From a virus (Duplodnaviria; Heunggongvirae; Uroviricota; Caudoviricetes), in the IMG/VR virus record IMGVR_UViG_2740892019_000008: DNA of 5,282 nt; one strand, given 5' to 3'. Positions 2,725 to 5,282 of the stretch are shown piece by piece. Each line of letters opens with the position of its first letter. Within the stretch, counting starts at the first letter, position 1. The position numbers and the translations under genes were made by a program. A model generated the notes under the pieces. That model was not told the origin of the DNA, searched no databases, and saw only the letters and a list, made by a program, of their open reading frames with translations.

Positions 2725-3714
2725 TTAGTTATTTTTTACATCGGAAGAATTTCCAAACGCCTCCTCAAGAATAGATTCAATTTTACTCATTAGGTGCGAT
2801 GGTATTTTTCTGTTATCTAATTTTAATGTTGTGAAATTTTTCCCATATTTCGCCACAACACCGTCTCCATATTTCTTTTCCCTTTTCTCTCCATGTGAAT
2901 TGTTTTTCTCAACAATAATGAAATCATGAAGAGCCTGTATTATTCTTTGCGCATCTAAACTTTCACCTGATTTTTTCATCCTCAGCAACTGAGATGCAGC
3001 ATTTTTCATGGCTGCTTCCTGTCCCTGATATGCTTTAAAAAGAGCGTCTCCTGCTCTGGCTGATAACTCACCAGGATGGTTAAATATTGCCAATATATCT
3101 TTAGGTAAACCGGCTGTATTAATACATCGACTGATAATATTTCTATCCACGCCTTCGGCTTCAGCTAAAGATTTTACGTTACCGTCAAATTCATGGAGCC
3201 TTCGCAGGTATCTTTTCCCCCTTTCATAGGCGCTGATAGGTCTATAGTCGTTGCCTATCTGCGATAACCATTGCATTTGTTCATCATCTAAATCGCCAAT
3301 AAGAACACGATAATCGCATCCAGTTATAATGGCTGCTTTACGTCTTCGAGAACCATCAGCTACTTCAACAATACCTGACACTTTTCTTGCGAAAGCCGGA
3401 TTTTGTTGCCCAGAAGTTAGAAAAGATGGAATTAAATCAGCTAGAGAAGATTCATTTAATAAATCTTGATCGCGCTCATTACCTAGCCATACCATTGTTG
3501 CCATTTCTACTTTATCTGCGGGGATCGTCTCTAACTTAAAGTTAACATTACGTCCGCATACTGGCAAAGTTATGCTATTACCGGTTAATGAACTCAGTTG
3601 ACGTTTTAAATCACCAACCATAGGTGATACCGGCTGATGTTCAGGTGCATGATGATTATTACTCATAATGCGATTAATATCCGGAGCATTTTTTAGAAGA
3701 GAGCGTTGTTTCAT
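2725..3714 (-). CDS. sopB: Partition protein SopB (ParB-family centromere-binding protein)
   Basis: The translation closely resembles F-plasmid SopB as recalled from memory (e.g. ...GNSITLPVCGRNVNF..., WLGNERDQDLL, LIPSFLTSGQQNPAFARKVSGIVEVADGSRRRKAAI). The ParB GSRRRKAA arginine-rich box is encoded at 3331..3354. The start ATG overlaps the sopA stop (ATGA at 3711..3714), indicating translational coupling. Confidence 0.9.
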   Translation of the reverse strand: MKQRSLLKNAPDINRIMSNNHHAPEHQPVSPMVGDLKRQLSSLTGNSITLPVCGRNVNFKLETIPADKVEMATMVWLGNERDQDLLNESSLADLIPSFLTSGQQNPAFARKVSGIVEVADGSRRRKAAIITGCDYRVLIGDLDDEQMQWLSQIGNDYRPISAYERGKRYLRRLHEFDGNVKSLAEAEGVDRNIISRCINTAGLPKDILAIFNHPGELSARAGDALFKAYQGQEAAMKNAASQLLRMKKSGESLDAQRIIQALHDFIIVEKNNSHGEKREKKYGDGVVAKYGKNFTTLKLDNRKIPSHLMSKIESILEEAFGNSSDVKNN

Positions 3715-4880
3715 TCTTCGTTCTCCCAGCGAGGTTTTATTAGATCATCAAAAATTTCTCGACAAACAGGATCCCATATAGAGACGGCATTTCTCCATGC
3801 ATTAAGTGTTGAACGCTGGTTTGCCGCTTGTTCAAATACTGTTCGCATTTTTATCTGACCTTTACCTACTTCATCGGTAACGCGTACAACCTGACGTAAT
3901 ACCATTGATCCCCATGTATTTCTTATTTGCTCTTCCATCCATCGTGATTGATTTCCTGTAGTGAGACTATATTTAGTCAGAAGCAAGCGAACGGTCGGCT
4001 CAAATCCGCCTAGGTCAACGCTTTCTAGGAGATCGAGAAGCATTGTGAAAAACTGTAGAACAGAGGCGTAATCAAATAATTCTGCAGGGGTAGCAACAAC
4101 GATAACGTCAGCTGCGCAAACAACGTTAATGGTTCCTGTACCGAGGTTTGGAGCACTATCTATAACGATAACATCGTAGTTATCCCAAACTGATTCTATA
4201 GCTGCGCGTAGCATCAGGTGAGGAGGGTGAGGCAATTTACCCTGAGCATGATATTGCATGAGATCTGTTTCTATACGGTGTAAAGCTAGGCAGCTAGGAA
4301 TAATGTCCAGTCCAGGCCAGCATGTTGGTTTTATAGCATATTCAGCGTTATCGCGTTCGCCTAAGTAAAATGGCAGTAAAGTATCCTCGGCATGGATATG
4401 TAAATCAGGTACATAACCGTGATACATGGAGGCTGTTCCCTGAGGATCGTTACCTTCAACTAAAAGAACACGATGGCCTTGTAATGCTAGCCATTGTGCC
4501 TGATGTACTGCAGACGATGTTTTATAAACGCCGCCTTTGTGTGACATAACAGCAAGCACAACTGGGTTTTTATCTTGTGGCCGTTGGTTTGGGTTGCCAA
4601 AAACAGCTCGCATACTATTGATTTGATCTATGGTATAACCGGCACGACGTTCAACTCTTCCTCTCATTTCAAAGTCAGGTGCAGGTAAACGCCCGTTCTT
4701 CTCAGCATCTCTTATTGCTTGAGGAGTTACACCAATTAAATCTGCTACTTCAGTTATCCCCCATCTACGCGTGATACGCCGAGCTTCAGGACTATCATCA
4801 CCGAATTGAGCGATAGCAATTGCTTTGGTCATTTCTTGACCACGCGTAACACAATCTTGTAATAACTTTTTCAAAGACAT
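3711..4880 (-). CDS. sopA: Partition ATPase SopA (type Ia ParA with N-terminal HTH extension)
   Basis: The translation closely resembles F-plasmid SopA as recalled from memory (EMTKAIAIAQF.DDSPEAR.ITRRW, VLLVEGNDPQGTASMYHG, DLHIHAEDTLLPFYLGE, IKPTCWPGLDIIPSCLALHRIE). A deviant Walker A KGGVYKT is encoded at 4518..4538. The N-terminal ~100 aa before Walker A are typical of autoregulating type Ia ParA proteins. GGAG Shine-Dalgarno (complement of 4889..4892) lies 8 nt before the ATG at 4880. Confidence 0.92.
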   Translation of the reverse strand: MSLKKLLQDCVTRGQEMTKAIAIAQFGDDSPEARRITRRWGITEVADLIGVTPQAIRDAEKNGRLPAPDFEMRGRVERRAGYTIDQINSMRAVFGNPNQRPQDKNPVVLAVMSHKGGVYKTSSAVHQAQWLALQGHRVLLVEGNDPQGTASMYHGYVPDLHIHAEDTLLPFYLGERDNAEYAIKPTCWPGLDIIPSCLALHRIETDLMQYHAQGKLPHPPHLMLRAAIESVWDNYDVIVIDSAPNLGTGTINVVCAADVIVVATPAELFDYASVLQFFTMLLDLLESVDLGGFEPTVRLLLTKYSLTTGNQSRWMEEQIRNTWGSMVLRQVVRVTDEVGKGQIKMRTVFEQAANQRSTLNAWRNAVSIWDPVCREIFDDLIKPRWENEE

Positions 4881-4901
4881 ACTGTCATCTCCAGCTTATA
4901 A

Positions 4902-4979
4902 CTTTGCTTAATAATTATTTCTTTGCATATTTCTAGCAAATTGACATAGAAAAAGCAAAGTAAAACAAAAAACGCAAAG
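4902..4979 (-). promoter_or_regulatory. Putative sopAB promoter/operator with four SopA-type CTTTGC hexamers in dyad-symmetric arrangement
   Basis: On the + strand CTTTGC occurs at 4902..4907 and 4921..4926, and GCAAAG at 4955..4960 and 4974..4979. Each pair is spaced 19 bp, and inner and outer pairs share the same centre (about 4940.5). F SopA is known to autoregulate by binding four CTTTGC motifs in its promoter. Exact -35/-10 elements were not pinned down. Confidence 0.55.
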
Positions 4980-5167
4980 ACGAAGATTTGAGCAAAATCA
5001 TCTTTTGTTTTATCCCTTAAATGCAAAAACAAACAACGACAAGCACATAACAAATTGATAATAAATGCTTTTTTAAAAGAAAGGAAATCGTATAAAACTA
5101 GGGAAACATGATGAAAATCATCAATGAGATACGTTTCCTCTATTTATTCTCCTAATCCTCACCAACA

Positions 5168-5268
5168 AAAGAACACAATCAAAGATTGTAAAACAACAAT
5201 AATAATGCACACAAAATAAAGAACACAAATACAGAAAGCAACAACACAATAAAAACAAGATAACACAA
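5168..5268 (+). repeat. A/C-rich, strand-asymmetric tract with direct repeats (AAAGAACACAA twice, AACACAA four times)
   Basis: AAAGAACACAA at 5168..5178 and 5218..5228. The core AACACAA starts at 5172, 5222, 5243 and 5262 (spacings 50, 21, 19 bp). The + strand here has almost no G or T. No ORF is listed in any frame. The tract runs to the window edge and may continue beyond it. Confidence 0.4.
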
Positions 5269-5282
5269 GCTATAAATATTAC

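Follow-up and report, generated by a model that had tools for sequence, protein, structure and literature searches.

Why should four copies of the hexamer CTTTGC, two on each strand, stand in mirror order within 78 bp directly upstream of a partition operon in the DNA of a tailed phage? The window, by which we mean the whole 5,282-nucleotide stretch analysed here (IMG/VR record IMGVR_UViG_2740892019_000008), carries two of them on the + strand (4902-4907, 4921-4926) and two on the - strand (4955-4960, 4974-4979); coordinate arithmetic gives both pairs a period of 19 bp and one shared centre, 4940.5. An earlier note on this DNA had claimed these coordinates, spacings and symmetry, and exact matching bears them out, as the sopA ORF (4880..3711, - strand) bears out the location claimed upstream of this gene: seen from the sopA ATG, the cluster covers 22-99 bp of the sequence ahead of the gene (sopA strand), on the side that faces the hairpin telomere. 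We argue that 4902-4979 is very probably the sopAB (parAB) promoter-operator of an N15-like linear plasmid-prophage, at which SopA would, by analogy with plasmid F, repress its own transcription by occlusion with SopB as co-repressor.

Since sopA lies on the - strand, the labels of the earlier note change places: its direct copies at 4902 and 4921 become #4 and #2', which are inverted and promoter-distal, and its inverted copies at 4955 and 4974 become #2 and #1, direct and upstream. Motif #1 (CTTTGC, 4974..4979), the most upstream, and motif #2 (CTTTGC, 4955..4960), which begins 19 bp later, are both exact and direct; the exact inverted copies, GCAAAG, are #2' (4921..4926, offset 53) and #4 (4902..4907, offset 72). 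Between them lies a fifth site that the earlier note had missed: motif #3, aTTTGC, a direct 5/6 match (- strand, 4941-4936) that follows #2 by exactly one 19-bp period. The gap from it to #4 is 28 bp, or 34 bp when counted between starts. The - strand order is cgt CTTTGC gttttttgtttta CTTTGC tttttctatgtca aTTTGC tagaaatat GCAAAG aaataattattaa GCAAAG ttataagctGGAGatgacagt ATG, which places five sites at offsets 0/19/38/53/72 in the sopA direction. Three are direct copies at 13-bp intervals (a 19-bp period, with starts at 4979, 4960 and 4941), and the two inverted copies complete two overlapping inverted repeats, #2 with #2' (IR2-2', spacer 4954-4927) and #3 with #4 (IR3-4, spacer 4935-4908), each across a 28-bp spacer. 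The "perfect dyad" of the earlier note follows from this layout, in which #1 and #4 (offsets 0 and 72) and #2 and #2' (19 and 53) share one midpoint. The symmetry of the four copies stands; the global dyad of the outer pair (66-bp spacer) is no binding unit in the current model, which pairs half-sites across 28-bp spacers. Nor do two direct plus two inverted perfect copies match F, which has three direct and one inverted perfect copy; the likeness shows when the degenerate third direct copy is included, and not before.

Counted in this way, the window scores 29/30 against the five-site F/N15 template, the best score in simulated random sequence being 23. This layout, together with the published SopA (ParA_F) motif, 5'-CTTTGC (PMC8465637), and the identity of the adjacent SopA, upholds the proposal of an F-type SopA autoregulatory operator. 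To ask how far the arrangement extends, we compared the 140-nt upstream regions of SopA homologues, namely those of N15, phiKO2, PY54, PhiR46_1 and F, of 39 of 40 IMG/VR loci (L040 is without the 5' end of the gene) and of three further genome loci, which gave 36 distinct promoters. The offsets 0/19/38/53/72 recur in these (about 35) except in the two most divergent, PY54-type promoters (L003, L043); the deviations are F, where #2' is at offset 52, and L012, with one extra base between #1 and #2. Among 11 clade representatives, the motif columns hold 1.80 bits and the other columns 1.07 bits: the hexamers are kept whilst the spacers drift. Motif #1 is invariant in these representatives (2.0 bits), and #2 is invariant in the relatives. 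We distinguish a window clade (the window, PhiR46_1 and L006-L008) from a sister clade (L009-L017) with a 99% identical SopA; all 12 distinct promoters of the two clades carry aTTTGC at #3. The insertion in L012 (IMGVR_UViG_2675903559_000011) lengthens a T-run by 1 bp, making the #1-#2 spacer 14 rather than 13 bp, and is the only spacing variant within these clades. The operator variant is carried by 15 of 5426 complete E. coli genomes.

Could the cluster nonetheless be a chance gathering of T/A-rich hexamers in an AT-rich intergenic region, or a by-product of coding constraint from the small ORF at 4871-5053 on the - strand? The region is indeed AT-rich, and this 60-aa ORF does span the operator and has a counterpart annotated as a CDS in PV340565. 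Against chance, CTTTGC occurs ten times in the whole window where dinucleotide shuffles give 3.6 +/- 1.8, and four exact copies per 78 bp arose in 0/3000 order-1 Markov simulations, whose maxima were 3 (whole-window composition) and 2 (intergenic composition); the layout score of 29/30 against a random maximum of 23 points the same way. Against both versions, it is the hexamers that are conserved and the spacers that vary, and the small-ORF frame is interrupted by stop codons in L009 (sister clade), L023, N15, phiKO2 and F. We consider this explanation scarcely credible, and reject the small ORF as a gene. Its counterpart in PhiR46_1, the "hypothetical protein" XSB42802.1 (L004 323-478), lies across the operator and is probably a spurious gene call, judging by these broken frames.

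Several neighbouring or distant sequences were also considered. An apparent sixth upstream copy, TTTTGC (4997-4992, an 18-bp period), was set aside: its spacing is off by one, and the sister clade has TTTAGC. The region upstream in Aeromonas phiARM81ld has no clear equivalent of the layout. In the Yersinia phage PY54 (L003 900-990, upstream of spyA), the hexamers are fewer and diverged (CTTTTGC, CTTTGC, GCAAAA), and the recognition helix of its protein has diverged too (QTIRNGED vs QAIRDAEK), which hints at co-variation of protein and operator. The Vibrio phage vB_Va_Val-yong3 has a perfect inverted repeat, GTTGCT...AGCAAC, with a 28-bp spacer (L050 339-344 and 373-378) in front of the gene for a ParA with 44% identity; the geometry is that of the SopA repeats and the half-site is a different one. 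As a related operator it is only suggestive, being a single case that could be chance.

How might SopA occupy such a set of sites? In F, motifs #1 to #3 are direct at 13-bp intervals and #4 is inverted 28 bp past #3 (IR3-4), whilst #2' is inverted 27-28 bp past #2 (IR2-2'); motifs #1, #2, #3, #2' and #4 together define the sopAB operator of F, N15 and phiKO2 (Boudsocq et al. 2021, Genes 12:1345; PMC8465637). One ParA dimer is held to bind each inverted repeat via two winged-HTH domains, with a third dimer anchored on #1, and the ParA_F footprint of ~85-87 bp runs from #1 to #4 and includes the -35 and -10 boxes; ParB_F raises the binding of ParA_F to the promoter (PMC8465637). This three-dimer model comes from the SPR, EMSA and modelling of one laboratory and conflicts with an earlier four-monomer model (PMC8465637). 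The window might seem to suit the latter: its four perfect copies fall exactly into mirror positions around 4940.5, as would be expected if one SopA monomer sat on each perfect hexamer, in a functional 2+2 dyad without further sites, and a stoichiometry of 4:1 in monomers had been put forward for F in an earlier EMSA study that PMC8465637 cites. However, the outer pair is 66 bp apart, beyond the reach of the two winged-HTH domains of one dimer (~10 nm, 34 bp centre to centre), and the four-monomer arrangement is a poor fit with the published dimer data (PMC8465637). In addition, the fifth site, aTTTGC at the position of F #3, is kept clade-wide, and the sister clade has a sixth, GCAAAT. We regard the four-monomer operator as unlikely here, and prefer dimers paired across 28-bp spacers.

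The proteins encoded beside the cluster are those that an F-type operator calls for. The gene sopA (3711..4880, - strand) encodes a type Ia ParA of 389 aa, the predicted hexamer-binding repressor, which scores 734.4 bits against the NCBIfam equivalog NF010259 (cut-off 725) with residues 1-387 covered; it shares 75% identity with F SopA and 93% with N15 gp28. Its start codon is preceded at 8 nt by a Shine-Dalgarno sequence, GGAG (4889..4892, - strand), kept in the window and sister clades. The downstream sopB (2725..3714, - strand), which overlaps sopA by 4 nt, encodes a ParB-type centromere-binding protein of 329 aa and the expected co-repressor (405 bits against NF010252, cut-off 274). The N-terminal 110 aa of SopA are 65% identical to F, and an N-terminal HTH lies at about residues 42-68 (nt 4757-4677), with weak Pfam MerR/HTH_3 matches at 42-69. 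F, N15, phiKO2, L023 and the window clade all share one recognition helix, QAIRDAEK, in agreement with an intact HTH in this SopA; that the HTH is also functional, as the earlier note suggested, is a reasonable reading of a conserved helix beside a conserved cognate operator. Could the hexamers instead belong to SopB? A search of the window for a sopC-like SopB centromere, GGGACCnnGGTCCC, with up to 3 mismatches allowed, found none, and the cluster is thus not a ParB site.

As to the promoter that the sites would cover, the window is less explicit. A generic sigma-70/terminator scan of 4700-5282, with a threshold of 9/12, reported neither a sopA-strand promoter nor a + strand promoter using TTGACA. 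In a relaxed scan, TTGCTA-17-AATTAT (8/12) was the only sopA-strand sigma-70-like pair with A2/T6 in the -10 (window, L004, L009). It is kept in both subclades, lies 4-5 bp downstream of the N15 positions and falls under the generic 9/12 threshold. The core promoter is probably this pair, with a candidate -35 of TTGCTA (4939-4934, 4/6) and a candidate -10 of AATTAT (4916-4911, 4/6), both on the - strand. As the F/N15 -35 box (TTGCTT, offset 35) is not conserved here, where TCAATT stands in its place, we infer the geometry of the promoter relative to the sites from the candidate pair: #3 would overlap the -35, #2' would fall within the -35/-10 spacer, and #4 would cover the predicted start (~4904). 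The AT palindrome to which the earlier note drew attention, AATAATTATT, lies at 4910-4919, one base from the 4911-4920 given there, and is the probable seat of the -10 hexamer. In the sister clade the corresponding sequence is ATTTAATTATT, in which the 10-bp palindrome is lost and AATTAT kept; we therefore rejected AATAATTATT as a separate protein-binding site. N15 also has a second, upstream sop promoter, which is repressed by its protelomerase.

The centre of the operator is where the clades part. The -35 box of F, N15 and phiKO2, TTGCTT (within GTTGCTTTGC, offset 35), is missing from the window and sister clades, and in F this box occupies the place where a partner of #1 would be (PMC8465637). 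At the same centre, the window has GTCAATTTGC and the sister clade the palindrome GCAAATTTGC, which yields both a partner of #1, that is #1' (GCAAAT, 5/6), and #3 (ATTTGC, 5/6), so that the sister clade carries all six half-sites. The sites #1' and #3 share 2 bp, at both of which the consensus of one conflicts with that of the other; the A at the first position of #3 can be understood as the outcome, GCAA-AT-TTGC being the symmetric compromise. In the window subclade, #1' (4940..4945, - strand, predicted to pair with #1 across a 28-bp spacer) has drifted to GTCAAT, a degenerate 3/6 match to GCAAAG. In both subclades #2' and #4 are perfect and #3 is ATTTGC without exception, which makes the central IR2-2' the perfect inverted repeat. 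Elsewhere in the window, the 5' end of sopA contains a 10-bp perfect palindrome, AGCAATTGCT (4815-4824), followed by CTTTGG, a 5/6 match to the hexamer; the palindrome resembles the sister-clade centre GCAAATTTGC.

The complement of the drifted #1' is the + strand TTGACA, which the earlier note had placed exactly at the dyad centre. It is present at 4941-4946 as described; its own centre is 4943.5, 3 bp off. Is it a promoter element? A divergent promoter would make it a real -35, driving transcription towards the telomere under the control of the same SopA sites, and a perfect + strand -35 consensus beside the dyad centre, kept throughout the window subclade (window, L004, L006-L008, L041), does invite the idea. 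Yet the + strand lacks a -10-like hexamer at 16-18 bp past TTGACA, and no promoter is reported there by the scanner; no + strand ORF of at least 40 aa lies between 4946 and the window end, and only ~66 further bases separate that end from the hairpin telomere. TTGACA is also absent from the sister clade, which has GCAAATTTGC instead, and from all other clades. A divergent promoter is thus very improbable in our estimation. Nor does TTGACA serve as the sopA -35, since it points away from sopA, is without a -10 partner and is replaced by GCAAATTTGC in the sister clade. On these comparisons, TTGACA most likely arose by accident as #1' decayed.

What, then, of the symmetry itself? We could speculate that the operator of these clades is a nearly fully two-fold set, made of three overlapping inverted repeats with 28-bp spacers, in which the promoter was pushed ~5 bp downstream to make room for #1' and IR2-2' nucleates; the GCAA-AT-TTGC centre of the sister clade would then be the only symmetric solution open to the overlapping #1' and #3. 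This is a tentative proposal, in which our confidence is low. If true, it would lend the support of natural variation to a third (IR1-1') dimer site, one that could not be seen in F as the -35 box covers it, and assembly would start at the centre and spread outward, not begin at the downstream edge.

What replicon carries these sites? The window is 96.8% identical to phage PhiR46_1, in a match that ends 66 bp short of the annotated telR end, and it also matches many E. coli plasmids of ~46 kb; N15 has its telRL site ~490 bp upstream of sopA. Taken together, these identify the element as an N15-like linear plasmid-prophage, a phage-plasmid of E. coli with siphovirus tail genes. The right end of the window (5282; L004 1-22) falls ~66 bp short of the hairpin telomere, placing the sopAB promoter within ~470 bp of the end of a linear plasmid. 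Between the promoter and the telomere, in an AT-rich, A/C-skewed stretch, two tandem 50-bp imperfect direct repeats (5153-5252, 72% identity, core AAAGAACACAA) could be telomere-flanking repeats of the tos type. Some assemblies hold two sop loci head to head, inverted and ~0.9 kb apart (L006 and L041, both IMGVR_UViG_2724679539_000001; L027 and L029, also on one contig; and several plasmid records that match at two places). Such pairs would be expected if a hairpin telomere is read through, or if head-to-head dimers of a linear plasmid stay unresolved. On the other side of the operon, the tail-fibre module adjoining sopB (60-2649) is mosaic: it is 89-93% identical to other temperate Escherichia phages, and the part at ~60-900 shares 86-88% DNA identity with tail-fibre genes of ~50-kb lytic phages (tuinn, swan01, EC195 and others). 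N15 has a UmuD-like gene beside sopB instead of this module.

Returning to the promoter-operator at 4902-4979, we propose the following sequence of events, in which binding, stoichiometry and repression are taken over from the F literature. As apo or ADP-bound protein, SopA dimers would engage five or six predicted half-sites (#1, #2, a degenerate #1', #3, #2' and #4), paired across 28-bp spacers via two N-terminal winged-HTH domains. One dimer would occupy the perfect IR2-2', another IR3-4 (5/6 plus 6/6), and a third would be anchored on #1; nucleation, we infer, would fall to the central IR2-2'. Overlapping one another, the three dimers would build up a cooperative complex over ~85 bp that occludes the core promoter and thereby represses sopAB transcription, with SopB as co-repressor. 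Against this explanation stand the imperfect state of IR3-4 (the primary nucleating repeat in F), a #1' with no more than 3/6 matches, the weakness of the candidate promoter (8/12), the loss of the F/N15 -35 box and the single laboratory behind the three-dimer model. The value of the finding lies mainly in annotation, as it marks the cis-regulatory site of the partition operon in linear phage-plasmids of E. coli, E. albertii and E. fergusonii. It also offers a clade of natural variants that are mildly informative for the three-dimer model of 2021, with a perfect IR2-2', an imperfect IR3-4 and a #1' that is present or destroyed according to subclade.

How does this operator compare with those already described? 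The motif, the layout and the function were established for F and extended in silico to N15 and phiKO2 in 2021, and no new mechanism is involved. Like the window, F has the CTTTGC hexamer, the 19-bp direct period, an inverted copy 28 bp after #3 and a #2' ~28 bp after #2, and its operator lies immediately upstream of sopA, with 22 nt between #4 and the ATG (21 in the window). The differences lie in which sites are perfect. F has CTTTGC at 0, 19 and 38, GCAAGA at 52 and GCAAAG at 72, so that its #2' is degenerate across a 27-bp spacer; in the window, #2' and #4 are both perfect and it is #3 that is degenerate. The perfect inverted repeat is accordingly IR2-2' in the window and IR3-4, the primary nucleating site, in F. 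The F -35, TTGCTT (offset 35, over the position of #1'), has become TCAATT, and the candidate -35/-10 pair of the window lies 4-5 bp further downstream.

N15 and phiKO2 share the replicon type of the window, N15-like with sopBA beside a hairpin telomere, and their offsets are identical to those of the window. In N15, #1 to #3 are perfect CTTTGC, #2' is GTAAAG (53) and #4 is aCAAAG (72), whereas phiKO2 has ATAAAG at both inverted sites (0/19/38/53/72). The promoter DNA of the window is too diverged from theirs for blastn, and a distant-mode search returned only PhiR46_1 among phages. The 2021 survey of 16 promoters (Fig. 5C for N15 and phiKO2) found "no closely related sequence" to that of N15 (PMC8465637), from which it follows that the window clade was absent from the promoters analysed there.

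Further afield, the parAB operators of P1 and P7 share the underlying logic: a type Ia ParA with an N-terminal winged HTH represses its own promoter, through hexamer half-sites paired across 26-29-bp spacers in overlapping inverted repeats. The half-sites themselves differ from those of the window, being TTATGC in P1 and ACGTGC in P7, and the ParA proteins of these plasmids are only ~27% identical to the SopA of the window, yet they provide its closest solved structures (3ez2 and 3ez9, P1 and P7 ParA).
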